From positions 1,080,001 through 1,112,000 of the forward strand of contig JBAZVE010000001.1 of NCBI GenBank assembly GCA_041661045.1: DNA of 32,000 bases. Reading direction: 5' to 3'. This stretch comes from Candidatus Saccharimonadota bacterium (GTDB lineage: Bacteria; Patescibacteriota; Gracilibacteria; UBA1369; 2-02-FULL-48-14). Position 1 is the stretch's first letter. Every line of letters begins with the position of its first letter. The notes under the pieces are model-generated. The model was not told the DNA's origin and did not search any database. It worked only from the letters and a program-made list of their open reading frames with translations. Positions 2,987 through 19,885 of this stretch are shown here, in pieces. The translations under genes were made by a program, and so were the position numbers.

Positions 2987-3063
2987 TGGTGGGCGATGGA
3001 AGATTTGAACTTCCGACCTCGACATTATCAGTGTCGCGCTCTAACCAACTGAGCTAATCGCCC
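2987..3063 (-). tRNA. tRNA-Ile (anticodon GAU), CCA encoded
   Basis: The reverse complement folds as a cloverleaf. Acceptor GGGCGAT/ATCGCCC, D stem GCTC/GAGC, anticodon stem CGACA/TGTCG with loop CT-GAT-AA, T stem GGAAG/CTTCC with loop TTCAAAT, then ACCA. Confidence 0.9.
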
Positions 3064-3116
3064 GAATAGCATTGAGTCCCTGCCGGGACTCTTTTGGTAC
3101 GCACTAAAGTGCGTGG

Positions 3117-3193
3117 TGGTGGAGCCTAAGGGAGTCGAACCCTTGACCTCCTCGGTGCAAACGAGGCGCTCTAGCCAACTGAGCTAAGGCCCC
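3117..3193 (-). tRNA. tRNA-Ala (anticodon UGC), CCA encoded
   Basis: The reverse complement folds as a cloverleaf. Acceptor GGGGCCT/AGGCTCC contains the G3:U70 alanine identity pair. Anticodon stem CCTCG/CGAGG with loop TT-TGC-AC, T loop TTCGACT, then ACCA. Confidence 0.9.
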
Positions 3194-3544: not shown

Positions 3545-4135
3545 TTAAAGAAGCTTTTTAAGGGCTTCTTCTGTTTCGGGGTCCAATCTTTCGCGTAGAG
3601 CCTTTTTTGCTCGAGATAAACGAGACATGACCGTGCCCATTTCAATCGTCAGTTCAGCTGCAATCTCGTCGTACTGCATATCCTGTTCGTACCTCAGGGC
3701 CAAAATTTCACGGTGGATTTGGGATAACCCTTCTAAGTGGGGTCTCAAAAGAGCTCGTATTTTTTGTTGTTGACTTCTCAACTCCAATTCCCGTAATCCT
3801 TCACTTGAAGTGGGGGTTGTCTCTGAATGTTTGGCAAGAAGTTTCGAGCGATTCTTCCTGTTACGAATAAGGTTGAGGGCGTGGTTTGAAACAGCTCTAT
3901 AGAAATAGTTGTTTGCATACTCTCCACCGCTGAATCTGGTTGGATTTTTAAGGATTTTCAATACTACTTCTCCAAATATGTCTTCCGCTTCTTCTTTATT
4001 GCACAGGCCCCCTTCCACCATAGTCCTTATTAAACGAGGCCTCATTGCATTCAAACGATTCAAGAGTTCTTGGAGGCGTTCAGGGGATTCCGTGGTGGGT
4101 TGAGGCGCGTCGATGGCTTCAGATACTTCAGACAT
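3545..4135 (-). CDS. RNA polymerase sigma factor, ECF (sigma-70 group 4) family
   Basis: Region 2-like EDIFGEVVLKILKNP...YFYRAVSNHALNLIRNRKN. Region 4 helix-turn-helix LSQIHREILALRYEQDMQYDEIAAELTIEMGTVMSRLSRAKKALRERL. Start placed at the ATG at 4135 (MSEVSE...), because the ORF-track TTG at 4192 is the TTG of a TTGACA -35 box. Confidence 0.85.
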   Translation of the reverse strand: MSEVSEAIDAPQPTTESPERLQELLNRLNAMRPRLIRTMVEGGLCNKEEAEDIFGEVVLKILKNPTRFSGGEYANNYFYRAVSNHALNLIRNRKNRSKLLAKHSETTPTSSEGLRELELRSQQQKIRALLRPHLEGLSQIHREILALRYEQDMQYDEIAAELTIEMGTVMSRLSRAKKALRERLDPETEEALKKLL

Positions 4136-4257
4136 ATTTTTTATAAAATGGTACTTCCCGGAAATTAAAGAGCCAATATGGGTATATGTCAAGACGACTA
4201 TTGACTATTCTAACTTTTATTGTTAGACTCCTGGTCTTGTCATTTTAACTTGTTTTT

Positions 4258-4716
4258 ATGAGACACTTTAAATCTGCATTTGCGGGTGCCGTGGTACTCG
4301 GGATGGGCGGTGCGGTTTATGATTATGTAACTTCTCAAACTGGACAAGCAGTTGCACTTGAGGTAGCCGACCCCCTGCTCGCTCAGATTGGGATGGACTG
4401 CCATCTTGCTTTGCAAGATCCTATTGGTCCAAGATCTTTTACGCCTAGGCCTGATTCTGATGATATGTGTGCCCAGTTGAGGTTGCGTATCGATACCACT
4501 TCGGCGAATAAGGATCAGATTGATTGTTTAGAAAAGGCGGTTGAGCATCCAACCTATGAGCCAGAGGATGAGGATTCAGATCTTAACCTCTCCCTGTCTG
4601 GGTGGACTTTTTCGGATGGTGATGTGCAGTTGACCATCTCTGTGGCTCAAGATGATACCTGTCACATAATCTGGCACGCCACTCCACTCGGATATGAGCC
4701 AGAAAAATCCGAATAA
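4258..4716 (+). CDS. Hypothetical exported or membrane-anchored protein (152 aa, 4 Cys, acidic C-terminus)
   Basis: N-terminal hydrophobic segment AFAGAVVLGMGGAVY. Divergent from the ECF sigma gene, with TTGACT-17-TAGACT upstream (4199-4227). No family recognised. Confidence 0.5.
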   Translation: MRHFKSAFAGAVVLGMGGAVYDYVTSQTGQAVALEVADPLLAQIGMDCHLALQDPIGPRSFTPRPDSDDMCAQLRLRIDTTSANKDQIDCLEKAVEHPTYEPEDEDSDLNLSLSGWTFSDGDVQLTISVAQDDTCHIIWHATPLGYEPEKSE

Positions 4717-4900: not shown

Positions 4901-5029
4901 CGGGTTTGAACTGAACGACTACTTCAGTTCGAACGAACAAAACAATTTTAAGACTCACAACAGGAAGAGCCTGTTGATGAGTAATTATTCTTTCTAATTG
5001 CCATAAAAAAGCACGGAAGATGACGTTAA

Positions 5030-7995
<2,966 letters not shown>

Positions 7996-8067: not shown

Positions 8068-8186
8068 TTCAGGTATCTATAGAGAGGAGGTCACACCCGT
8101 TCCCATTCCGAACACGGCAGTTAAGCTCCTCTTCGCCGATCGTACTGTCACAATTAGTGATGGGAGAGTAGGGCGATACCTGAACT
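8068..8186 (+). rRNA. rrf: 5S rRNA
   Basis: CCCGTTCCCATTCCGAACACGG at 8096-8117. Closing helix CAGGTATC...GATACCTG. About 118 nt, lying about 70 nt after the 23S. Confidence 0.9.
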
Positions 8187-8295: not shown

Positions 8296-9993
8296 ATGGC
8301 CGTTCGTGATGATTTGCTTGCCGGTAAGCTCATCGAAAAAGGGCTTGTTGATGCCAAAGTTTTGGAAAAACTTCAATCTTCCCTCAAAACACAAGGAGGG
8401 TCTTTGGAGAATCTTCTTTTTGAGCGGGAAGTGCTTTCGGAGGAGGTTTTGGGAAAAGTGATTGCAGAAATCTATGAAGTCCCCTTCATTTCTTTGAAGG
8501 ACAAGCCAGTTTCTGATGATTTGCTCTTGATGGTACCTTATCTGGTGGCTTCCCATCAGTTTGTTTTGCCCTTTGAACGCAAAGAGGGTGAGCTTTTGGT
8601 GGCTTTCAACAATCCTCATGATTATGAGCTCATTAATTTTTTGGAAAACAAAACGGGCTTAAAGGTTCTGCCCCATTACGCCACTAAAAAAGATCTGCAA
8701 GCTTCTTTGAAGGTCTATAACCGAAATGTGAACGATAAGCTGGATACCTTGCTTCAGGGGGCGTTGACGGACACCAAGAAATTGGAATCCTTAAAGGATG
8801 CTTCCCAGATTGTGGATACGGTGATTTTGCTTGCTTATCAAAGTGAGGCTTCGGACATTCATCTGGAGAGCCATAAAAATCTTTTTGTGGTGCGCTACCG
8901 TATTGATGGCATTTTACACACCATTGCGGAACTTCCTATTGTTATTTCCGATCTCATCATCACTCGCATTAAGGTGCTTGCGAAACTTCGAATTGATGAA
9001 CACCGTGCGGCGCAGGATGGGCGATTTAAGATTACTCTTGAAGGGAATGAGATCACTTTGCGTGTTTCTATTTTGCCTACTTACGATGGGGAAAAGGCCG
9101 TGCTTCGTTTGCTTACTTCTTCACGGCAGGAATTGGATTTGGCCGGGTTTGGCTATACGCCCAAAAACTTGGAAATCATTAAAAATAATATCCGTAAAAC
9201 GAATGGGATTGTGCTTATGACGGGGCCTACGGGATCCGGTAAAACCACGACCTTGTATTCTATCTTAAAAATCCTCAACACTCCCGAGGTCAATATTTCT
9301 ACGATTGAAGATCCTATTGAATACCATCTCGATCGGATCAACCAAACGCAGGTTAATCCCAAGACCAACCTTACTTTTGCCAATGGGCTGAGGTCTTTGC
9401 TTCGTCAGGATCCAGATATTGTGATGGTGGGGGAAATTCGTGATGAAGAAACCGCCAGCACCGCCATCAATGCGGCGCTCACCGGACATTTGGTTTTGGC
9501 TACGCTGCACACCAATGATGCCGCCTCTACATTGCCACGATTGCTCGAAATGAATGTGGAGAGCTTTTTGGTCTCGGCGACTGCCAAAATGGTGATTGCT
9601 CAGCGATTGATCCGTAAAATTTGTGAGAAATGTAAGACGCCCTATACGCTTCGCATCGATCAGCTCAAGGAACTCGAGAAAAAATCCAATGTTAAGGAGA
9701 ATCTGGAACAAATCTTCTCGGGGATTCAGGAAGCTAAAGATGGAACCTTTACCCTCTACAAGGGCACCGGTTGTGAGGCTTGTACGGGTGGATTTAAGGG
9801 ACGAACCTCTATTTGTGAAGTGATGGAAATTTCTGATGAGATTCGAAAGAAGATTTTGGATAATGAATCGCCCACCGCCATTCAAGCCGTGGCCGTTAAA
9901 GAGGGGATGGTGCCGATGTTTGTGGATGGAATGATCAAAGTCTTGCAAGGAATCACGACTATTGAAGAAGTGCTTCGAGTGATGCGCTCTTAA
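8296..9993 (+). CDS. pilB: Type IV pilus assembly ATPase, PilB/GspE family
   Basis: Walker A GPTGSGKTTT, Asp box/Walker B IVMVGEIRDEETA, His box LTGHLVLATLHTNDA, and the tetracysteine motif CEKCK...CEAC. The N-terminal GSPII-like domain is present. Confidence 0.92.
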   Translation: MAVRDDLLAGKLIEKGLVDAKVLEKLQSSLKTQGGSLENLLFEREVLSEEVLGKVIAEIYEVPFISLKDKPVSDDLLLMVPYLVASHQFVLPFERKEGELLVAFNNPHDYELINFLENKTGLKVLPHYATKKDLQASLKVYNRNVNDKLDTLLQGALTDTKKLESLKDASQIVDTVILLAYQSEASDIHLESHKNLFVVRYRIDGILHTIAELPIVISDLIITRIKVLAKLRIDEHRAAQDGRFKITLEGNEITLRVSILPTYDGEKAVLRLLTSSRQELDLAGFGYTPKNLEIIKNNIRKTNGIVLMTGPTGSGKTTTLYSILKILNTPEVNISTIEDPIEYHLDRINQTQVNPKTNLTFANGLRSLLRQDPDIVMVGEIRDEETASTAINAALTGHLVLATLHTNDAASTLPRLLEMNVESFLVSATAKMVIAQRLIRKICEKCKTPYTLRIDQLKELEKKSNVKENLEQIFSGIQEAKDGTFTLYKGTGCEACTGGFKGRTSICEVMEISDEIRKKILDNESPTAIQAVAVKEGMVPMFVDGMIKVLQGITTIEEVLRVMRS

Positions 9994-10001
9994 CTTTAAT
10001 T

Positions 10002-11213
10002 ATGGCCAAATCTTTTAAATACAAGCTTGGAGATAAATTGGGGCCCGAGGCCAAAGGGGTTCTTGAGGCTGAAACGGAGCACGATGCCATTAAAAAGCTT
10101 ACGGAGCTGGGGCATACGGTCATTTCTATTCGAGAACTTAAACGAGGGTCACAGCCATTTTGGGATAGGCCTCACTTGAGTTTTGAGGAAAAACTTCTTT
10201 TTACAAAGCACTTTGCCACCATGCTTCGTGCGGGCATCACCATTACGGAGGCGCTTCAAATTTTGGCGTCTCAAACGGTTCAGGCCAAAAATCGCCAAAT
10301 GTATGAAAGTATTCAACGGAGCGTGAGGGCGGGACAATCTCTTTCGGAAAGTCTGAAACCTTACGACACTATTTTTTCTGATTTGTTCATCAATATGATT
10401 GAGACGGGGGAAAAAAGTGGAACCCTCGACCAAATTTTGGATTATTTGGACGAACAGCTCGACAAAGAATATGAACTCCGGAAAAAGGTGATTTCAGCGT
10501 TTATTTATCCCGCTGTGATCATGGGCATCACTTTGCTTCTAACGCTTGGAATCGTGTTTTTCATCATGCCTAAAATTACGGATATTTTTACTTCTTTTGA
10601 CATCACGCTTCCGCTGCCAACCCGGTTCCTCATTGGGTTCAGCTCTTTGCTTACGGCTCAGCCGCTTCTCACCTTACTGGCGGCCATCCTTTTTACGGGT
10701 TTTGTGGTGTTTCTGCTCAAGTGGAAGGCCCTTAAGCATTCTCGCGATTGGATCGCCTTGCATTTGCCTGTTTTTGGTAAGGTTTTGCGCTATGCCAGTT
10801 TGGCACGATTTGCGCGCACCCTCACTTCTCTTTTACAAGCGGGGATGCCGATTACAAAGGCCTTGAATGTCATTGCAAAAATGATGACCAACAGTTTGTA
10901 TCAAGAGGCCGTTCAGAATTCCGCGGCTAAAGTGGAACAAGGTGGGCAGTTGGGGGAGGCCTTTGAAGGAGAGGAAAAACTTTTCCCCATTTTAACGGTT
11001 AAAATGCTGTATGTGGGAGAGAAAACCGGAAGTTTGGAGACCACCATGAAGCAATTGGCCCTTTTGTATGAACGGAATGTGGATGGCCTTACTCGTAATT
11101 TAACGGTTTTGCTCGAACCCATTCTGTTGGTTTTCATGGGCCTCATGGTTGGAGGCGTGGCGATTTCGATTATTTTACCGATTTACCAGTTGCCTAATCT
11201 TCTTTCTCGATGA
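10002..11213 (+). CDS. pilC: Type IV pilus platform protein, PilC/GspF family
   Basis: Two GspF-type repeats (FATMLRAGITITEALQIL and LTSLLQAGMPITKALNVI) and three hydrophobic TM segments. 403 aa. Starts 8 nt after pilB. Confidence 0.9.
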   Translation: MAKSFKYKLGDKLGPEAKGVLEAETEHDAIKKLTELGHTVISIRELKRGSQPFWDRPHLSFEEKLLFTKHFATMLRAGITITEALQILASQTVQAKNRQMYESIQRSVRAGQSLSESLKPYDTIFSDLFINMIETGEKSGTLDQILDYLDEQLDKEYELRKKVISAFIYPAVIMGITLLLTLGIVFFIMPKITDIFTSFDITLPLPTRFLIGFSSLLTAQPLLTLLAAILFTGFVVFLLKWKALKHSRDWIALHLPVFGKVLRYASLARFARTLTSLLQAGMPITKALNVIAKMMTNSLYQEAVQNSAAKVEQGGQLGEAFEGEEKLFPILTVKMLYVGEKTGSLETTMKQLALLYERNVDGLTRNLTVLLEPILLVFMGLMVGGVAISIILPIYQLPNLLSR

Positions 11214-11659
11214 AAAAAGCCTTCACCTTACTCGAGATGCTTTTGGTCTTTACCATCATGGGATTGTCGTTTGGACTTGCTGTTCTTTATGCTCAAGTGT
11301 CTCAGCTGAGGGCTGATCTTCATGGTCAGGCCGATTCGTTTGTTTCTTATGTGCGGCTTGCACAAAGTGATGCCGCGAGTGGTAAGCATGGGCTTGCTCA
11401 CGGGGTTCGTGTGGAATCGGATTCTTACACGCTTTTTTCCGGAGCCGTTTATGATCCACTGGATCCGCTGAATATTCTGGTGGAGCTTCCTCCCACGATT
11501 GAGATCCAAAATATTGCACTCAATGGGGGAGGTTCAGACCTTATTTTTACGATTCCATATGGGGAGACCGATACTTATGGATCACTTAACTTTACTTCTC
11601 TTTCCACCGGTGAAACGGTTTTAATAACGATTTACGCCAATGGCATCCTTGATTACTAA
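11210..11659 (+). CDS. Minor pilin / pseudopilin (149 aa)
   Basis: Class III signal MKKA|FTLLEMLLVFTIMGL with E at +5. ATGA overlap with the pilC stop. Confidence 0.75.
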   Translation: MKKAFTLLEMLLVFTIMGLSFGLAVLYAQVSQLRADLHGQADSFVSYVRLAQSDAASGKHGLAHGVRVESDSYTLFSGAVYDPLDPLNILVELPPTIEIQNIALNGGGSDLIFTIPYGETDTYGSLNFTSLSTGETVLITIYANGILDY

Positions 11660-13529
11660 AAAGCGCAGATTTTTGACTTCTATAAAAGCATTTTCTCTCA
11701 TTGAGATCTTGCTCGCTATTTTTGTATTTTCTTTGTTTTCAACGGGGATGGTTTACCTCTCTTTGGATACCGCTTCCCGTGCGGTGCAGGTGGAACTCAA
11801 GAATGAAGCCCTGCTGTATGCGGAGGAGGGGATTGAAGCCGCTCGAAATATTCGAGATCGCAACTATTTGGATCTTGTCGCTGGCTCTTATGGCTTGAGC
11901 TTCTCTTCGGATACTTGGTCTTTGGGAGCAGCTCCGGAAACCATCGATGGCTACTATCAACGAACCGTTTTGGTTGAAGATGTGTATAGGGATGGAAACG
12001 GAGATATTGTTCCTATGGGAGCTTTGGATCCGGAGACCAAAAAAGTGACAGTTACGGTGGATTGGAATTGGAAAGCTTTGTTCCCAAAATCTATTTCTTT
12101 GGTCACTTATCTTACAAATTGGACCGGAGATGAATGGATGCAAACCACTTGTACCGAATTTGCCGGTGGGACCTTTACGGACACCAGTGCTTTGGCCAGT
12201 ATTGCTCCTCCAGCGGACAACTGCACCGTTGAACTCACCCTGGTGGAAGGGCAAAGTGACTTTTTTTGTTCGGTGGAGGCGGGGTCTCACGGAACCGATA
12301 TTGTGATGGCGGATGATTATGCGTATTTCACTACCGGGAACTCAGGGAGTGGGCTTATTACGGCGGACATGTCCGCCTTGGGTGAAGCGGAAAGTGAGAA
12401 TTGTGACGATGAATTTGATGAGAAGGAAGTCGACATAGGAGGGAAGGGACGGTTTTTAGTGAAGAGTGGAAATTACCTTTATATTGGAGTTCAAAGCTCG
12501 AGCAAGGGCTTGGCGGTGGTGGATGTTTCGGATCCGGATGATCCGGATTTGGTGAGGCAAATCAACCTTGGAGGTTATGGGAATCAGCCTTTTGTGAGCG
12601 GGAATACCCTTTTCATGGGGGTCGAAAAAAGCAGCAACAGTTTTGTGGCTTACGATATCAGCAGTCCCTCCAACCCCGTCTTTTTGGGAGCATACAACCC
12701 GAGTGCCGCGACAAGGACAGTGGAGATCAATGGCAATTATGCTTACATTGGAATCGATAACGCTTCCTCGACGCTTCGGGTGGTGGATATTTCCAATCCA
12801 TCTTCCATGAGTTCTGTTGCCTCACTCAATTTATCTGGAAGAGCGTACGCCTTGGAATACTATTCGTCGGTTCTTTATGCGGGTACGGACAGTGCCACCA
12901 GTTCTTTAAAAGTTATTAATTTGAGCAATCCCTTGAGTCCCACTTTAAGTTCTTCAATGAATGTGGGTGGCAGTGTACAAGATCTTAAAGTCGAAGGGGG
13001 GTATTTGTATGCGCCCACGGATGTCACAAACAATGCTTTGGCGGTCTTGAATGTGAGTACCCCGCTGGGGCCGGAGATCACCTATTATGCGGATCTTTCC
13101 GGGAAGGGGACGGGGGTGGATACCAATGCGGACAGGGTTTTCTTGAGCATCGATACCGCCAATGAGGGCTTGGTGATTCGAGACACCGTGAATGTTGAAT
13201 TGGCCAGCCCCGGTACCTTTACTTCAGAGGCTTTGGACACCGGAAGTGTGGATACGCGGTTTAATTTTATTGAATGGGAGGCCACGGTGCCGATGACGGG
13301 CTCTATCAGTTTTCAACTGCGTACCGCCAATTCCTCCGCCGCACTCTCTTCCGCCACTTGGGTTGGGAGCGACGGAACCTCTGCCACTTCTTATACCACT
13401 TCTCCCACCGTGATTGTTTTGGATCCTGCTCGCAGCGGAAATCGATTTATCCAAGTAAAAATCACCATGACTTCTGATGGAGTTTCGACGCCCGCTTTGG
13501 AAAGTTTTTCTGTTAATTACAACCCATGA
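11640..13529 (+). CDS. Large minor pilin: prepilin N-terminus + PilX-N-like region + roughly 7 LVIVD-type beta-propeller repeats + C-terminal beta-rich domain (629 aa)
   Basis: SIKA|FSLIEILLAIFVFSLF prepilin motif. ALLYAEEGIEAARN resembles the PilX N-terminal motif. Seven units of about 42-45 aa repeat the pattern GNYxYxG-x5-7-LxVVDxSxPxxP (nt about 12289-13190). The C-terminal 110 aa follow. Confidence 0.8.
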   Translation: MASLITKKRRFLTSIKAFSLIEILLAIFVFSLFSTGMVYLSLDTASRAVQVELKNEALLYAEEGIEAARNIRDRNYLDLVAGSYGLSFSSDTWSLGAAPETIDGYYQRTVLVEDVYRDGNGDIVPMGALDPETKKVTVTVDWNWKALFPKSISLVTYLTNWTGDEWMQTTCTEFAGGTFTDTSALASIAPPADNCTVELTLVEGQSDFFCSVEAGSHGTDIVMADDYAYFTTGNSGSGLITADMSALGEAESENCDDEFDEKEVDIGGKGRFLVKSGNYLYIGVQSSSKGLAVVDVSDPDDPDLVRQINLGGYGNQPFVSGNTLFMGVEKSSNSFVAYDISSPSNPVFLGAYNPSAATRTVEINGNYAYIGIDNASSTLRVVDISNPSSMSSVASLNLSGRAYALEYYSSVLYAGTDSATSSLKVINLSNPLSPTLSSSMNVGGSVQDLKVEGGYLYAPTDVTNNALAVLNVSTPLGPEITYYADLSGKGTGVDTNADRVFLSIDTANEGLVIRDTVNVELASPGTFTSEALDTGSVDTRFNFIEWEATVPMTGSISFQLRTANSSAALSSATWVGSDGTSATSYTTSPTVIVLDPARSGNRFIQVKITMTSDGVSTPALESFSVNYNP

Positions 13530-14029
13530 AGAATCGCTCCGCCACTACTCTCATTGAAATCCTTGTTTACTTCACTATTTTTGGAGTGTTTTTAACGGCA
13601 GCGTTTTCTTTTGCGATTCAGATTGTTAATCTCAGTGAACTGACTTCTCGTTTATATGAACTTGAGGCACAATCTTCCTTTGTGGAAGAGAATATGAAAA
13701 CCGCTCTTTTGACGGCGGAGGAGGTGGATGGGGCAAACAGTGTTTTTGATGCGGATGCCGGAATTTTGACTCTCACCATGAGTGAGGTGGAATCGAACCC
13801 TACGGTGTTCTCCGTCTCGAACGGGCAGATTTTTATGCAAGAGGGGGCGGGAGCCGCGGAGGCTTTACATTCCTCCTTGCTTCAGGTTACTTCTTTACGG
13901 TTCCATCGGATCACTTATGATAAAACTCCGGATCAAATTCAGGTGGACGCCATCTTCACGGTGCCCTCCGACCTCGCAAATATTGATGCAGACCTTTCTC
14001 TTCACTTTACCATTTCCCTTCGTCCATGA
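13526..14029 (+). CDS. Minor pilin / pseudopilin (167 aa)
   Basis: MKNRSA|TTLIEILVYFTIFGVFL (E at +5, T rather than F at +1). ATGA overlap with the upstream stop. Confidence 0.7.
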   Translation: MKNRSATTLIEILVYFTIFGVFLTAAFSFAIQIVNLSELTSRLYELEAQSSFVEENMKTALLTAEEVDGANSVFDADAGILTLTMSEVESNPTVFSVSNGQIFMQEGAGAAEALHSSLLQVTSLRFHRITYDKTPDQIQVDAIFTVPSDLANIDADLSLHFTISLRP

Positions 14030-14415
14030 AAAATCCACAAGCTTCCGTTGCGCTCATTAGTATTCTGATTATTTCAGCTTTCACGCTGCTCCTTTTGGTG
14101 GCAACTTCGATATCGGGCCTCTCCAATGCGGATCAATCTTTCAACTTTGATTCCTCAAAGATCAGCTATTATGGTGCGGAAGCTTGTTTGGAGGAAGCCT
14201 TGCTTCGTACGGAGCAGGACGCGGCTTTTACCACCACTACTCTTTCTTTGGATGAAGACACCACTTGTTCGGTGACCGTTAGCGGCGCCAATCCCAAGAC
14301 GGTTTTGGTGACGGTGGATTTTCTGGAGTACAGTCAGAGCTTTCAAGCCACCGTTTCCATCACTCAAAACGGACAAATTTACAACAATGAACTTTTAACT
14401 TGGGAAGAAATTTAG
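14026..14415 (+). CDS. PilX/GspK-like minor pilin lacking Glu5 (129 aa)
   Basis: N-terminal hydrophobic helix MKNPQA|SVALISILIISAFTLLLLV without E5. YYGAEACLEEALLR resembles the PilX-N motif. ATGA overlap with the upstream stop. Confidence 0.55.
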   Translation: MKNPQASVALISILIISAFTLLLLVATSISGLSNADQSFNFDSSKISYYGAEACLEEALLRTEQDAAFTTTTLSLDEDTTCSVTVSGANPKTVLVTVDFLEYSQSFQATVSITQNGQIYNNELLTWEEI

Positions 14416-14439: not shown

Positions 14440-16071
14440 ATGTTCCTATTCTCCAAAAATATTCTGGGCATCGACCTGCATGATCACCTTGTGCAGTTTG
14501 TTGAATTGAAGAAAAGAGGCAAAAAGTTTTCTTTAGAGGCGTACAATCGTTTAACGATTCCGGAGGGTTATATTCAAGATGGAGAAATAAAAAAAGAAGA
14601 AGAGCTTAAAGAACTCCTTAAGAAGCTTTTGAAGGAGGCCAACCCCAACCCGGCACGATCTAAAGAAATTGCGCTTATTTTACCGACTCAAGTCACTTTT
14701 ATTCACATTTTTCACTTTCCCGCAAATTTATCGATCTCGGATTTGAGGAAACTCATTCCCGTGGAGGTTGAAAATATTTTGCCATACGCGGCGGCGGAGG
14801 TGTATTGGGACTTCACTATTCTTGAAAAACATAAGGATGACGGGCAGAGTGTTTTGTTTGCCGCCACCCCAAAAGTTTCCGCGGATCAATACTTGAAACT
14901 TTTTAATGAGCTTGGCTTTAAATCTGTTCTTTTTGGCATACAGCCGGAGGCCTTGCAAAACGCTTTGGCTTATAAATTGGTTCCTGAGGAAACCACCATG
15001 GTGGTTGAACTCGGAGCTTTGGCCACCAATTATTTGTTCTTAAATGGATCTGTCATTCAGAAATTCGTGAGCATCAACGGGGGTATTGAGGATCTTATCC
15101 AAACTTTGAGTCGCAATTTTTCTCTGTCTTCCGATGAACTGTGGGCCAACTGGGAGCAGCATAAAACAGAGGAGCGCTTTCAACCCGATCTGAATGCCTT
15201 TATTGAGGAGGCTTACAAGCAAGTGCAGACCATACTTAAAGAAACCCTCGGGCTTGAAGAAAAAAACTTAAAGGGCCTGCTCTTTACCGGAGAGTTCTCG
15301 AACCTCCCTTTATTTTATGAGCGGGCTAAGGAGACTTTTGTAGGGAAGACCGTGCTTATTGGAGATCCTAAATCCAGGTTGATTATTGATGATAAAAAGT
15401 TTGCATCCGACCCCGAGAAATATGGAGGGAAGGTGCCTTATTCCATTTATTTTACGGATGCCATTGGAGTGGCGCTCAGGGCTCTTTATGGGTCGGGGCG
15501 AGCGCTCAATCTCATTCCGGACACCCTCAAAGCACATTTTTCTCAACAAAGGTTGGCGCTCATTATGGGTGCGAGCTCTCTTCTCATGACGCTTTGTGCC
15601 GCCTTTTTTACTTCTTCGGTTTTTTATCAAAATCGCCAGCTCTCTTTTTCTCGCTTGAATCTTGAAATTCAGAAATCCGGTATTGAAAAAACATTGTTTG
15701 GAACCCGGTACATTGGTGTCAAAGAAGAGCTTACCGAGTTCAACAAGGAGGTTACGGCTTTAAAGAAAATCGATCAAACCCTTATCTCTTTGCCTCTCGT
15801 TTTGGAAGATGTCCTGGAACTGATCCCGAGCCAGGTTCAAGTTTTGGCGATTGATTTTATAGACGAGAGTCTTTCTGTGGAGATCACAGGGATTTCCACC
15901 AGTCGAGAGGCGCTTCTTGCCTTGCAGGACAATTTGGAGGCGGCTGAGTTTGTGAAGGACTTTGATATTCCTCTTTCTTCTTACGACCAAAAAACCGACA
16001 CTTCTTTCACGGTTTCCATTCTCTTAGATTTTCCTCATCTTCCTTTTTATGCAAGCTCAGAAAACAATTGA
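14440..16071 (+). CDS. PilM-PilN fusion protein (543 aa)
   Basis: N-terminus ILGIDLHDHLVQFVELKK, with an actin-like PilM fold pattern over about 350 aa. One TM helix LALIMGASSLLMTLCAAFFTSSVFY (nt about 15553) follows, then about 150 aa of coiled-coil and periplasmic domain, as in PilN. Confidence 0.7.
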   Translation: MFLFSKNILGIDLHDHLVQFVELKKRGKKFSLEAYNRLTIPEGYIQDGEIKKEEELKELLKKLLKEANPNPARSKEIALILPTQVTFIHIFHFPANLSISDLRKLIPVEVENILPYAAAEVYWDFTILEKHKDDGQSVLFAATPKVSADQYLKLFNELGFKSVLFGIQPEALQNALAYKLVPEETTMVVELGALATNYLFLNGSVIQKFVSINGGIEDLIQTLSRNFSLSSDELWANWEQHKTEERFQPDLNAFIEEAYKQVQTILKETLGLEEKNLKGLLFTGEFSNLPLFYERAKETFVGKTVLIGDPKSRLIIDDKKFASDPEKYGGKVPYSIYFTDAIGVALRALYGSGRALNLIPDTLKAHFSQQRLALIMGASSLLMTLCAAFFTSSVFYQNRQLSFSRLNLEIQKSGIEKTLFGTRYIGVKEELTEFNKEVTALKKIDQTLISLPLVLEDVLELIPSQVQVLAIDFIDESLSVEITGISTSREALLALQDNLEAAEFVKDFDIPLSSYDQKTDTSFTVSILLDFPHLPFYASSENN

Positions 16072-16600
16072 TCGGTTGCCAAAATTATTCCATGTTTGCA
16101 TGGTTTTAATGCTGTTCTTTTTTGCGGCGAGCATCATTTTGGGAATTTCCAACAAAAAATTAGCTTTGGATATTGAGGTTTTGGAGATCTTTTTGTTGAG
16201 TGCTGCGGAGGTGAAGCCCAACTTTGAAGAAAGTTTGAATTTTTATACGGAAGGAGCTCAAGATGCCATTGATTATGTTCAAACGCTTCGTCCGGATTCT
16301 GAAGGAGAATACATCGATTTTATTTCCAGTGTTGAGGGCATTGGCCAAAACTTGGCTTTGGATGTGAACCTGGAGTCGCTCGATACACCCAAGCCTGACA
16401 ATTTGGGGAGCGTACTGCGCTATCGCGTGGAATTTTTTGGAAGCCGCAATGACTTGATCGCTTTTCTAAAAGAGCTGGAGGCCCTTCCTTACTATGTTCG
16501 GGTTGAAACCCTTCAATACAAGTCTTTGGAGTTTGCGGTAGGGCCCCAGGGGCAATTGGCTCAGAATGTCGTTCTAACCCTTCAGCTGTATGTTCGATAA
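16049..16600 (+). CDS. PilO-like bitopic membrane protein (183 aa)
   Basis: Single N-terminal TM (VCMVLMLFFFAASIILGI) plus an extracytoplasmic domain. 23-nt overlap with pilMN. The call rests mainly on gene order. Confidence 0.45.
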   Translation: MQAQKTIDRLPKLFHVCMVLMLFFFAASIILGISNKKLALDIEVLEIFLLSAAEVKPNFEESLNFYTEGAQDAIDYVQTLRPDSEGEYIDFISSVEGIGQNLALDVNLESLDTPKPDNLGSVLRYRVEFFGSRNDLIAFLKELEALPYYVRVETLQYKSLEFAVGPQGQLAQNVVLTLQLYVR

Positions 16601-16814: not shown

Positions 16815-17261
16815 ATGAACCGTCTTCATAAAAAGGCCTTCACTCTGATTGAAGTCCTCCTTGTGATCGTGATTATTGCCATTTTGGCAGGAATCGTGAT
16901 CATTGCCGTTAATCCCGGCCGTCAGATTTCTCAGGCCAACAATTCTCAACGCAGCAGTGATGTGTTGGCGATTTTAGATGCCGTACACCAGTATGGTATT
17001 GAGAATCGAGGTACTCTTCCGGCTGCTATCACTGCTACCGCAACGGTGGTGGGCAGCGGAGCTACAGAGATCGATATTTGTACGGACCTTGTTCCCACTT
17101 ACCTCACAGCCATTCCTTTTGATCCCAGCACCACCGGTGCCGGATACACGGACTGCACCACTTATTCTTCCGGCTACACGATTGCCGTGGATGCGGATGG
17201 TCGAGTAACGGTTGCGGCTCCAGATGCTGAACTTGCTGAAACCATTTCAGTGACTCGATAG
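16815..17261 (+). CDS. pilA: Major type IV pilin (148 aa)
   Basis: MNRLHKKA|FTLIEVLLVIVIIAILAGIVIIAV is a canonical N-methylation/prepilin motif with E5. Two Cys near the C-terminus (ICTD...DCTT). Last gene of the locus, followed by a terminator. Confidence 0.85.
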   Translation: MNRLHKKAFTLIEVLLVIVIIAILAGIVIIAVNPGRQISQANNSQRSSDVLAILDAVHQYGIENRGTLPAAITATATVVGSGATEIDICTDLVPTYLTAIPFDPSTTGAGYTDCTTYSSGYTIAVDADGRVTVAAPDAELAETISVTR

Positions 17262-17278: not shown

Positions 17279-17307
17279 GGAGGGTGGACAACCGCCCTCT
17301 TTTTTTA
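17279..17307. terminator. Bidirectional rho-independent terminator between convergent pilA and the minus-strand operon
   Basis: GAGGGTGG-ACAA-CCGCCCTC is an 8-bp stem with one G:U pair, flanked by AAAAA on the left and TTTTTTT on the right. Confidence 0.65.
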
Positions 17308-18702
17308 TGCTGCTTTTTGCAGCATGAGTGCCCTCACACCCTCTAAACTTTCGCGGTCACCTGACTCCAAGCTGTCTTCTTTTAGTAATTCCTTGCACCA
17401 GTGAAGATTCTCCTCTATTAATCGATTTTTGCGCTGAATGAAGATGGGTTTCCCCTCTTCTATCTCCTCCATCATTTCAATGATGTCCGGCGTTTCTAAA
17501 ACCGTTCGTATCTGCGTTTGGAGTTTTTGGATTTTTAATGTATGAAGATTATTGAGTCGATCTGCAGCCTTAACTCTTAGCGTAACTTCTCGTTCTTCTT
17601 CCGGGAGCGGGAGCATTTGTCTTTTTAAGTAGCCGGGATGGTCCTTTTCATCTTCCGGTTTGGTGAGAGCTTGGATTCCTCTTAAAATCAGAGCCCCTTC
17701 TTCTTCTTTTCTTCGATACATGATATTGGTTTCCCCAGATATGGATGGATATCTTTTTCGTGTCAGTCGATCTTGGATTCCGGTGTCCCAGGTCGGTTTT
17801 TCTGCCAGTTTTTGTTTTAAGAATCCGATCCCAAGATTCCGATGATCTTCCGCATAATCGTGACCTTCGGCTTCGGTTACTCCAAGCTTCATGTTTCTGA
17901 AAATGGCCTTTCTCTTTTCCGGATCGGGCTCCATCTCCAATTCCAGACTGTATCCATTGATGACATCCACGCAAACGGAATAAATATGGTTCATGGTGAG
18001 CTGACCATCCTTTCTTCGGCGCTTCGCCTTGTTGTGCTTATGGCCTCCGGTGTGTACCGCACTGCGCACGGCCGCATAGTAGAGGTGTCCCAGTTGAATC
18101 ACTTCCGTCCACTCGATGAACTCGTCGAGGTCTTCTATACCGGTTTCAAAAGAGGGATCTTCTTCTTTTTTGTAAGCGGAAAGCAGTTGTAAAAAACAGC
18201 TCAAGTTTTGAAAATACAGCGCTTTTTTTGTGTAATGATGTCCTCTATCTTTATCTTCCTCTTCTTTTGAATACCCTTGGGTCTCTTGAGGGATGGAAAT
18301 GATGGTTTCGGGAGAAACACTTAGAAGTTCCGTGGCTTGCATTTGTATTCGAGCGTCTCTTATCCTTTTCAGGACGCCTTTCCCGGATTTTTCCCACATG
18401 GTATCCATGGATTGATCCAACTCTCTTTTGGCATTTTTTAGAGCGATGGCGCTTTCTTTGAGGGGATGATCTTCGTCCAAATGTGGCGGGAGCTGGATCT
18501 GATCAACGGCAAACTGAAAAATCCGTTCTTCTATTCTCCACATGGGGCGTTCGTCGATTTCCGCATAGGCGGGCTCCGCATGCCACCTTTCTTCCGGGAT
18601 GGGAAAGGGAGGTCTTTGATAATCAAAATCACCGTAGGATTCTTTTATTCCCTCATCTGTCCCTGGGTCTATTTCTCTGTTTGGAGATTGGGTGTCAGGC
18701 AT
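17305..18702 (-). CDS. Divergent HD-domain protein, SpoT/Mesh1-type (p)ppGpp-hydrolase-like, with an N-terminal extension of about 220 aa (465 aa)
   Basis: Three motifs in the correct order: RRRKDGQLTMNHIYSV (Arg/His), GHDYAEDH (HDxxED) and VKAADRLNNLHTL (ADRLxNxxTL). Spacings are longer than in canonical Rel/SpoT. No synthetase domain is present. Confidence 0.5.
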   Translation of the reverse strand: MPDTQSPNREIDPGTDEGIKESYGDFDYQRPPFPIPEERWHAEPAYAEIDERPMWRIEERIFQFAVDQIQLPPHLDEDHPLKESAIALKNAKRELDQSMDTMWEKSGKGVLKRIRDARIQMQATELLSVSPETIISIPQETQGYSKEEEDKDRGHHYTKKALYFQNLSCFLQLLSAYKKEEDPSFETGIEDLDEFIEWTEVIQLGHLYYAAVRSAVHTGGHKHNKAKRRRKDGQLTMNHIYSVCVDVINGYSLELEMEPDPEKRKAIFRNMKLGVTEAEGHDYAEDHRNLGIGFLKQKLAEKPTWDTGIQDRLTRKRYPSISGETNIMYRRKEEEGALILRGIQALTKPEDEKDHPGYLKRQMLPLPEEEREVTLRVKAADRLNNLHTLKIQKLQTQIRTVLETPDIIEMMEEIEEGKPIFIQRKNRLIEENLHWCKELLKEDSLESGDRESLEGVRALMLQKAA

Positions 18703-18713
18703 CGAGAAGGGGG

Positions 18714-19436
18714 CTACTTGGGTGCTTTCACGGTGTCGGCAGCCTTTTTAGACTCTTCATCCTTCTCTAAGGCCAGCTCATCGCCCGGGTTTATTTTTTG
18801 ACTGCGAGAGGTGAGAGGATTGTAGGTTTCGTAAAAAAGTTCAATCAGCTCTTCGGTATTCAGCTCTTCCACTTTAAGCCCGCAGCCTTCCAGTCCGGCT
18901 CGAACCGTGTTGGTGCGTTGGCTGAGGCGCTTTTTGAGTTCTTCAAATTGTCTTTGTCTTTGTTGAATTTTAACCACGCTGTCTTGTGGAAAAATATTTT
19001 CCAAGAAAGATTTTAAGAATCCACGGCGTTCTTGGCCGAAAGCTTCTTGAGGCACCACCACAAAGAATTGTTTCTCCATGATGTTGGCGTATTCCACTAA
19101 ACGACTGATGTATTCGGTGTATTCAAAAGTTTGTTTTTGCAGGAGAGGATTGGCTTGTTTGACGCCAATTTTCTTGAGTTTGATGATGTAGTCGTCCAAA
19201 TCCAACTTTTTGCTTCGCACCACAATTTGAATGGGGAATTCAAGCGTGTTGAGAAAGTTTTGGTAGGAGTAAATAACGGCATTTTGCTCTTGTTCAGACT
19301 TCAAACTGAGGTTGATGCTGGAGGTTTTGAGTACGCTCCGGAGCCCCCCATTCTTTAAAATCACGGTGCTGTCGTGGATTTCGGCGATTTTGAGATGCAT
19401 TTGAGTGCTCTCTTTTTTGGATTTTACTTTATTCAT
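18714..19436 (-). CDS. VirB4/TrsE N-terminal-domain-like protein without an ATPase domain (240 aa)
   Basis: IAEIHDSTVILKNGGLRSVLKTSSINLSLKSEQEQNAVIYSYQNFLNTLEFPIQIVVRSKKLDLDDYI matches, from memory, the N-terminal region of Gram-positive/CPR VirB4-like proteins. No Walker A or B motif is present. Confidence 0.6.
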   Translation of the reverse strand: MNKVKSKKESTQMHLKIAEIHDSTVILKNGGLRSVLKTSSINLSLKSEQEQNAVIYSYQNFLNTLEFPIQIVVRSKKLDLDDYIIKLKKIGVKQANPLLQKQTFEYTEYISRLVEYANIMEKQFFVVVPQEAFGQERRGFLKSFLENIFPQDSVVKIQQRQRQFEELKKRLSQRTNTVRAGLEGCGLKVEELNTEELIELFYETYNPLTSRSQKINPGDELALEKDEESKKAADTVKAPK

Positions 19437-19885
19437 AGCGATGGATGGGGTTTGCCGTAGGCGTCCAATGTTTTTGTGATTTCTCCGATCTTTTGAAGCC
19501 GTTCACGGTCACGAAGCAACTTGTCTGAGTTGACTTCTTTAGTTTGCACCTTTTTACTTTTATCTGCAAACAGCGTGGCGGCGTAATTGTCAGCGGCCCC
19601 CATCACAAAGGAGCGTTTTTTGGGATTCACAAAGTACTCCACCATCAAAAGACACCATTTTCCAAAAGGGATTCCGCTGATTTTTAGAAAGGTGACGGCC
19701 AGGGTGATGAGACCCGGAATGACGGTGGGAACCAGCCAAACCTCGATGTAATACTTGCTTGCAAGAATCGTATAAATGGCATAGGTAAGCCCTCCGCCCA
19801 CTCCAAGCATGATGAGCTGCTTGAGGGTTAGCGGGCCCACTATTTTATCTTCGATTTGTACATTTTGTGGAATTTTGTATTGCAT
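19433..19885 (-). CDS. PrgI-family (VirB3-like) membrane protein (150 aa)
   Basis: MQYKIPQNVQIEDKIVGPLTLKQLIMLGVGGGLTYAIY followed by a second TM helix, which is the typical PrgI-family N-terminus. Its TGA stop overlaps the next gene's ATG (ATGA). Confidence 0.65.
   Translation of the reverse strand: MQYKIPQNVQIEDKIVGPLTLKQLIMLGVGGGLTYAIYTILASKYYIEVWLVPTVIPGLITLAVTFLKISGIPFGKWCLLMVEYFVNPKKRSFVMGAADNYAATLFADKSKKVQTKEVNSDKLLRDRERLQKIGEITKTLDAYGKPHPSL

Follow-up and report, generated by a model that had tools for sequence, protein, structure and literature searches.

In this analysis, we explore a gene for a modular minor type IV pilin in a 32,000-nucleotide (nt) stretch of DNA from Candidatus Saccharimonadota bacterium (assembly GCA_041661045.1, contig JBAZVE010000001.1, positions 1,080,001 to 1,112,000; termed ‘the window’, with positions counted from its first letter), examining its sequence anatomy, predicted fold, operon slot and conservation, and the occurrence of its pilin carrier either bare or with other passengers. 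The open reading frame (ORF) encodes 629 amino acids (aa) and lies exactly where an earlier note made from the sequence had placed it, and all the peptides quoted in that note are present in the translation. The note described a pilin fused to a seven-bladed LVIVD-type beta-propeller and a C-terminal beta domain, and proposed it as a pilus-tip adhesin; we lean towards a closely related reading, in which the protein would display a binding module at the pilus tip. The gene comprises the following features (coordinates, strand, description, basis):

11640..13529, plus strand: whole ORF of the modular minor type IV pilin, 629 aa and a TGA stop
11640..11690, plus strand: leader peptide, aa 1-17 (MASLITKKRRFLTSIKA), with a predicted prepilin-peptidase site after Ala17; comparison of 54 homologues, N_methyl matches
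11691..12122, plus strand: pilin module, aa 18-161, alpha-1 helix and beta-sheet head, ending in ..VTYLTNW; model, bare homologues
12123..12275, plus strand: neck, aa 162-212, with the conserved pair Cys171/Cys195; Cys conservation, position after the pilin module
12276..13190, plus strand: seven-bladed LVIVD beta-propeller, aa 213-517; Pfam, AlphaFold2, Foldseek, repeat period
13191..13526, plus strand: autonomous beta domain of about 105 aa, aa 518-629, without a Pfam model; model, profile and tandem-copy evidence

The reading frame is not split by frameshifts in independent data: a separate Logan assembly contig carries the identical, uninterrupted ORF in the same gene neighbourhood. The protein is identical to a JGI/IMG entry named ‘pseudopilin PulG’, and 227 database proteins match it at E<=1e-3, about 80 of them at full length (600-634 aa) with 35-76% identity, several being named as Candidatus Peregrinibacteria prepilin-type proteins. 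Relatives were found in about 35 Peregrinibacteria/Peribacteria species genomes with a constant operon position; the gene is broken into two ORFs at two loci (L005, L033) and intact at the other Peregrinibacteria/Peribacteria loci. A metagenome scan returned no relative above 74% identity, and the 90% cluster contained the same genome only. A mobile-element origin of the gene was also considered and rejected, since the plasmid match sought for it was not found.

The NCBI copy of the protein, MFA6024587.1 (‘Candidatus Gracilibacteria bacterium’, 651 aa), consists of the 629-aa protein plus a tail, GRIAPPLLSLKSLFTSLFLECF, encoded at window positions 13530-13595, the TGA stop at 13527-13529 having been read as Gly under genetic code 25. 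Because the C-terminal end ..NYxP is found in all 54 homologues, TGA terminates 7 of the 25 window ORFs, and in-frame TGA is absent from the long conserved genes, we conclude that the organism uses code 11 and that the public translation is over-extended.

Pilin module

The class III signal read by the earlier note at the N-terminus, MASLITKKRRFLTSIKA|FSLIE, is consistent with the features measured across the 54 homologues. Position -1 is Ala in 34 and Gly in 20, with nothing else observed (the window protein reads KA|F), position +1 is Phe in 47/54 and position +5 is Glu in 54/54, the last being the residue required for subunit docking in filaments. Leaders of the homologues have a median length of 11 aa and a net charge of about +2.5, and are followed by an uncharged run with a median of 25 residues; Ala at -1 is also found in all other pilins of the operon. 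Furthermore, the N_methyl family is matched by 51/54 members at E<=1, with a best value of 3.6e-7.

An AlphaFold2 model built from the 54-sequence alignment (predicted local distance difference test (pLDDT) 89.7, predicted template modeling score 0.62) predicts a helix at residues 20-74 followed by strands at 82-168, with pLDDT values of 83-95 in the pilin region. Profile matches of the pilin module are all sub-threshold and mostly cover the N-terminal helix, namely ComGE (17/18), GspI (11/18, best 6.9e-6), PilV (10/18) and GspJ (10/18), and profile searches against the PDB, with either the whole protein or the pilin module, returned only N-terminal helix matches to major pilins. The stretch ALLYAEEGIEAARN represents the C-terminal half of alpha-1, which is conserved in this family with the consensus YA[QE]EG[LI]EAxR. 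A ‘PilX_N-like’ label for part of the module did not hold up: PF14341 gives no match at E<=10 in the window protein and lies outside the top 25 families by frequency of matches among the 54 homologues (E<=1), and this identity was rejected for lack of profile support in both.

Neck and propeller

The pilin module passes into a neck in which Cys171 and Cys195 are both kept in 94% of homologues, and which is predicted in the AlphaFold2 model to form a small beta segment (164-208) carrying the two cysteines. The segment occurs only directly after the pilin module, usually along with the C-terminal domain.

Roughly seven LVIVD units had been proposed at about nt 12289-13190, and seven are found, at nt 12285-13199. 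The blades start at aa 216, 266, 310, 354, 398, 442 and 486, with an exact 44-aa period for blades 2-7 and an insert in blade 1 (aa 241-260). The LVIVD family PF08309 is matched with 77.3 bits against a cutoff of 20.2 (E=5.6e-22), with Pfam detecting only four stretches, and by 54/54 homologues. In line with a propeller, AlphaFold2 predicts seven groups of four strands with pLDDT above 90, and the best Foldseek matches in the PDB are generic seven-bladed propellers, namely Groucho/TLE WD40, G-beta, BamB, P22 gp10 and a Sphingobium phosphotriesterase, with target-normalised TM-scores of 0.65-0.72 for the WD40 matches (Groucho/TLE, G-beta) and 0.41-0.58 for the others. Sequence searches detect no LVIVD relative with a solved structure; LVIVD propellers elsewhere occur in surface proteins with type IX secretion system sorting domains.

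The surface chemistry of these modules bears on what they might bind. Tip minor pilins of other systems bind DNA, and the protein could be the DNA receptor of a competence-type pilus, its tip passenger capturing extracellular DNA. Pili of candidate phyla radiation (CPR) bacteria have often been proposed to serve in DNA uptake (PMC11452946). However, all of the modules have a strongly acidic composition throughout the family (propeller net charge -22 and isoelectric point (pI) about 4.1; C-terminal domain pI about 4.3), which argues against a DNA receptor, and no DNA-binding family was matched in the profile scans; we therefore disfavor this role and regard it as very improbable.

Equally far-fetched in our view is a displayed enzyme, such as a hydrolase acting on the envelope of a partner cell. 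Several observations could be cited for a catalytic propeller, including Foldseek matches that are enzymes (the Sphingobium phosphotriesterase 5hrm and prolyl endopeptidase), weak SBP56 matches in 13/54 homologues, and near-invariant polar residues (H217, D220, K269, K489, N508). Yet the matches are generic propellers at 10-14% identity, no enzyme family scores above threshold, and the conserved positions are for the most part G, Y and P residues with a structural role in the repeat.

C-terminal beta domain

The earlier note ended the protein with a domain of about 110 aa, and a beta domain is indeed predicted at residues 518-628 of the model and conserved in homologues, its most conserved feature being a loop A-x-W-V-G-x-D-G-T. 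Profile searches of Pfam and the PDB gave nothing significant, and matches to carbohydrate-binding modules are faint and isolated (CBM_35_2 at E=0.05 in 1/8 sequences; CBM_6 at E=0.23 in 2/22). The domain is nonetheless widespread, with 1119 cluster representatives at E<=1e-3, and large proteins (for example P0122, P0165, P0193, P0262, P0231, P0234 and P0247) contain 2-6 copies of it side by side at a spacing of about 105 aa, together with TIG, FN3, Calx-beta, DUF2341, ConA-like or dockerin domains. Since tandem copies occur in large multidomain proteins, we consider it an autonomous extracellular beta domain and a candidate for the definition of a new domain family.

Among the proteins encoded in the same operon slot (slot X; see “Pilus operon”), neck and C-terminal domain are both present in 50, both absent from 16 and discordant in 9. 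We considered whether the two could be halves of a split beta sandwich into which the propeller has been inserted; this was rejected, as the tandem copies of the C-terminal domain occur without a neck-like segment.

Pilus operon

The gene had been assigned to a type IV pilus locus, and this is confirmed: pilC and pilM are separated by four minor-pilin slots, of which the gene occupies the second. The other genes of the operon are as follows:

8296..9993, plus strand: PilB-type assembly ATPase; T2SSE, E=9e-123
10002..11213, plus strand: PilC platform protein; T2SSF, E=1e-52
11210..11659, plus strand: minor pilin slot 1, GspH/ComGD-like, overlapping the start of the 629-aa gene by 20 nt
13526..14029, plus strand: minor pilin slot 3, its ATG overlapping the TGA of the 629-aa gene (ATGA)
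14026..14415, plus strand: minor pilin slot 4, without Glu+5, a GspK/PilX-like trait; comparison of 60 homologues
14440..16071, plus strand: PilM-PilN fusion; Pfam scan
16049..16600, plus strand: conserved 183-aa ORF at the PilO position; no Pfam match
16815..17261, plus strand: major pilin (HKKA|FTLIE); Pfam scan, conservation

The four pilin genes span positions 11210-14415, and stop and start codons overlap throughout this block. A phmmer survey found the order PilB-PilC-mp149-X-mp167-mp129-PilM(N)-orf183-major pilin to be kept in 81 loci across Patescibacteria, with the pilin module of the 629-aa protein always in slot X; in every Peregrinibacteria operon examined, the gene is present as a single copy. 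Scans for operon promoters and terminators gave counts at chance level.

The gene order of the minor pilins resembles GspH-I-J-K, FimU-PilV-PilW-PilX and ComGD-E-F-G. Slot 1 matches GspH/ComGD at 8e-10 and 1.6e-7, both sub-threshold, and Glu+5 is present in 0/60 homologues of slot 4, its absence being a hallmark of the GspK/PilX class. As slot 1 is GspH/ComGD-like, slot 4 lacks Glu+5 and slot 2 has weak ComGE/GspI/PilV matches, the four-pilin block looks like a conserved H-I-J-K set, and the 629-aa protein is probably the ‘I’ class (GspI/PilV/ComGE) minor pilin, judging from gene order and sub-threshold scores. H-I-J-K sets form an assembly-priming complex that finishes at the filament tip (PMC9934059).

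This setting also bears on whether the protein enters a filament in the first place. The class III signal might serve only for export and anchoring, leaving the propeller at the cell surface and never in a pilus, and archaeal sugar-binding proteins, which carry prepilin-type signals, provide a parallel. Pilus incorporation is something that we infer, the N_methyl score of the window protein is sub-threshold, and large passengers would presumably be hard to move through the pilus machine. By contrast, a simple anchor fits poorly with the invariant Glu+5 in 54/54 homologues, with a gene embedded in a minor-pilin block of overlapping stop and start codons, and with a pilin module homologous to bare minor pilins of the same slot, making this reading distinctly improbable.

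Two Peregrinibacteria species have an unusual slot-4 gene (L006:9343-10458, L011:8700-9827), which encodes a GspK-like pilin of 371-375 aa versus the usual ~130. The extra ~240 residues contain repeated ..ING..I.. motifs suggestive of a beta-helix, indicating that passengers can occupy another minor-pilin slot. In addition, several records with a Patescibacteria-type operon are titled ‘uncultured Gammaproteobacteria’, ‘Nitrospirota’ or ‘Mollicutes’ (L042-L044, L049, L058, L069, L070, L072); these oddly titled contigs of metagenome-assembled genomes are probably mis-binned or mislabelled.

Passengers across Patescibacteria

Comparison across the phylum, the most informative part of the analysis, separates a constant carrier from variable passengers. 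Slot 2 of WWE3, Moranbacteria, Azambacteria and some Saccharibacteria is occupied by a bare pilin (153-184 aa), which aligns to residues 18-161 of the window protein at 35-43% identity and ends exactly at ..YLTN(W), residue 161. A profile of the pilin module finds 1745 proteins, the best 120 of which are almost all 143-305 aa long. Elsewhere, the 145-residue module carries one or two LVIVD propellers, WNGSSW modules, unannotated modules, or 1-3 copies of the 105-aa domain, giving the following forms of the slot-2 protein (length, composition, loci):

419-508 aa: one LVIVD propeller, no C-terminal domain; L050, L054, L061 and others
about 600-640 aa: propeller and C-terminal domain; Peregrinibacteria loci (776 aa in L034), and L075 with 670 aa
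about 940 aa: two propellers and C-terminal domain; L041, L043, L047-49
632 aa: a non-LVIVD middle and the same C-terminal domain; L062, a complete Kerfeldbacteria chromosome
about 600 aa: WNGSSW-repeat modules; L074
1393-1652 aa: multi-module forms; L067, P0152, P0179

Hence, the carrier is a complete minor pilin and the passenger an accessory: the existence of bare forms means that the carrier can work without a passenger, which points to an added, outward-facing function. 

Slot-2 pilins at three loci (L069, L071, L074; 563-611 aa) have neither LVIVD repeats nor the C-terminal domain. In the L074 protein (L074:6944-8737), four WNGSSW motifs spaced about 50 aa apart were detected in the passenger, and the L069 and L071 proteins show only two, 114 aa apart. 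This passenger may be another propeller or a lectin-like repeat.

The pattern of a fixed slot with swappable passengers provides a genomic handle for comparing tip equipment between lineages, and for setting it against host range. This cross-phylum pattern is perhaps worth writing down in its own right, and may be more useful than the single gene.

Variation among orthologues

Median identities to the window proteins were calculated across 30 Peregrinibacteria loci. They reach 61% for PilB, 53% for PilC, 48%, 39% and 44% for the pilins of slots 1, 3 (mp167) and 4, 38% for PilMN and 71% for the major pilin; for the modules of the 629-aa protein, they are 55% (pilin module), 50% (neck), 39% (propeller) and 51% (C-terminal domain). 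The major pilin is therefore the most conserved protein of the operon (71% versus 61% for PilB), which is unusual for a surface-exposed major pilin.

A hypervariable propeller on a conserved pilin helix had been suggested as a signature of a specificity determinant. The propeller is indeed the least conserved and fastest-evolving module (39% versus 55% for the pilin module), yet neighbouring machinery genes vary at least as much (PilMN 38%, mp167 39%), and in the closest orthologue the propeller is 79% identical, compared with 81% for the pilin module. Hypervariability was thus rejected at the species level, and the signature is weak. Within the protein, the stretches that vary comprise the leader, the insert of blade 1 (aa 241-260) and the segments between blades.

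Such steady conservation invites a second use of the propeller, as an assembly or anti-retraction factor that stabilizes or primes the tip complex and controls extension and retraction, in the manner of the PilY1 C-terminal propeller. The PilY1 propeller is likewise seven-bladed, and PilY1 works with the four minor pilins, as discussed in PMC8179133 and PMC11623550. The fixed place of the gene in the priming block, its single copy in each Peregrinibacteria operon examined and the lack of hypervariability all accord with a part of the machine. However, many Patescibacteria keep the operon with a bare slot-X pilin, indicating that the passenger is dispensable for the machine, and the protein has no Pfam similarity to PilY1/PilC, PilY1 also being absent from the top 50 Foldseek matches. 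Moreover, Nanosynbacter lyticus TM7x lacking the minor pilin PilX2 is still piliated (PMC11623550). We consider this assembly role unlikely, if deserving of continued attention.

Proposed role

Our preferred reading, which we regard as probable on balance and by no means certain, is that the protein acts as a modular minor pilin of the type IV pilus and presents a binding module at its tip; the location at the tip and an adhesive function are both plausible inferences. Prepilin peptidase would most likely cut between Ala17 and Phe18, so that Phe18 becomes +1 and Glu22 becomes +5. The hydrophobic alpha-1 helix and small beta head (aa 18-161) would then constitute a complete pilin module fitting the pilus core, and the protein would join the three other minor pilins in a priming complex, which comes to lie at the distal end of the pilus. 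The passenger of about 470 residues, predicted to consist of a disulfide-braced neck, the LVIVD propeller and the 105-aa beta domain, would be displayed at the tip, since it is too bulky for the shaft. At the tip, it would most likely bind a ligand on another cell or surface, and pilus dynamics could then draw the two partners into contact. Leader processing, pilus incorporation, tip location and ligand binding are all suggested by analogy with H-I-J-K sets and modular pilins (PMC8179133, PMC9934059) and with PilX2 of TM7x.

Several points weigh against this reading. The ‘I’ assignment derives from sub-threshold matches and gene order only. The window protein itself scores 15.9 bits with Pfam N_methyl PF07963, where the gathering cutoff is 21.2, and 13.7 bits with NCBIfam TIGR02532, where the cutoff is 16.3. 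A prepilin peptidase gene (Peptidase_A24) was not found among the window ORFs scanned, and profile searches assigned no ligand-binding family to the propeller or the C-terminal domain. Furthermore, the propeller is conserved across the phylum, which fits a conserved ligand or, equally, a housekeeping assembly role.

More tentatively, the tip-display reading might be extended to the phylum. The ‘I’-slot minor pilin could be a universal plug-in carrier across Patescibacteria, with the passenger type setting tip recognition and the acidic LVIVD propeller acting as the Peregrinibacteria host-recognition element; monoderm-like bacteria would, on this proposal, have solved the PilY1 problem by fusing propeller and pilin. 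We think that this extension is rather doubtful as it stands.

Peregrinibacteria are uncultured, ultrasmall bacteria. Among the products of their single conserved pilus operon, the 629-aa protein alone is bulky and would face outward, making it an obvious candidate for binding tests.

Surrounding genes

The remainder of the window holds ribosomal RNA (rRNA) genes that are not contiguous, with 16S at 1-1187, 23S at 5027-7994 and 5S at 8069-8184. Between 16S and 23S lie two ORFs without a Pfam match (1389-2309 and 2333-2980), tRNA-Ile and tRNA-Ala genes on the opposite strand (2987-3193), a sigma-70-like ORF (3545-4192, minus strand) and a further ORF (4258-4716). In the window, the pilus operon follows immediately on the 23S-5S pair; L057 and L003, the two closest relatives checked, share this arrangement, but more distant relatives do not.

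Three minus-strand ORFs lie next to the major pilin gene on its downstream side: a PrgI-family ORF (19433-19885, E=3e-12) and two without a Pfam match (17305-18702, 465 aa; 18714-19436, 240 aa). They possibly belong to a type IV secretion-like or conjugation-like set.

Comparison with known systems

In diderm type IVa pili, PilY1/PilC provides a seven-bladed propeller that is associated with four core minor pilins at the tip. PilY1 itself is no pilin, its propeller serving as a carrier that docks on the minor pilins, whereas the propeller described here is covalently joined to a pilin. The distinction from PilY1/PilC drawn in the earlier note is thus upheld, with no PF05567/IPR008707 match and a pilin N-terminus in place.

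A seven-bladed LVIVD propeller and a C-terminal beta domain are indeed carried on a pilin, but pilins with LVIVD repeats are not new. Raynaud et al. 2021 (PMC8179133) list 30 proteins with architectures combining IPR012902 and IPR013211 (N_methyl and LVIVD) in their Dataset S1, IPR013211 being the LVIVD repeat (PMC10210494), and the text of the same paper mentions an 860-aa Falkowbacteria pilin with 12 copies. LVIVD repeats were described in 2004 as surface-protein repeats, with their function unknown at the time (PMC2447325). In the literature library searched, we found no study specific to this Peregrinibacteria family, or to LVIVD pilins beyond the Raynaud dataset.

With a complete pilin module and modules that are not pilus-specific, LVIVD and the C-terminal domain both occurring in non-pilin proteins, the protein is a modular pilin as defined by Raynaud et al. 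2021. Pilins of this kind expose adhesive modules at the tip of the pilus (PMC8179133, PMC9934059). Like PilB (vWA) and PilC (Ig-like and ConA-like lectin) of Streptococcus sanguinis, it has a pilin module, a short linker and bulky modules (PMC8179133; Shahin et al. 2023, PMC9934059), and all three are minor pilins encoded in a pilus locus, with a proposed tip complex. Unlike those two, its passenger is an LVIVD propeller and an unannotated beta domain, known here from sequence and model.

Extra domains on a pilin fold, with a tip location proposed or shown, are also found in CofB/TcpB (type IVb), ComZ (Thermus) and GspK (type II secretion system) (PMC8179133). These consist of a beta-repeat and a beta-sandwich in CofB/TcpB, a beta-solenoid in ComZ and an alpha-domain in GspK, some being inserted within the pilin fold. 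In our protein, by contrast, the modules are appended after a complete pilin module, because the bare homologues end at residue 161.

The best functional analogue is PilX2 of the Saccharibacteria member Nanosynbacter lyticus TM7x; upon deletion of PilX2, host binding falls by half and piliation persists (Grossman et al. 2024, PMC11623550). Both proteins are Patescibacteria minor pilins with a C-terminal seven-bladed propeller and are proposed tip adhesins. PilX2, compared here by description only, has an RCC1-type, PLL-lectin-like propeller, whereas ours is of the LVIVD type without an RCC1 match; PilX2 is reported to lack a recognizable PilD signal, whereas the family studied here has a clean one; and PilX2 lies in an accessory pilin-only locus, whereas our gene sits in the core operon and encodes an extra C-terminal beta domain. 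Modular pilins and propeller-bearing CPR minor pilins are therefore already established, and the protein of the window extends this known biology rather than changing it.

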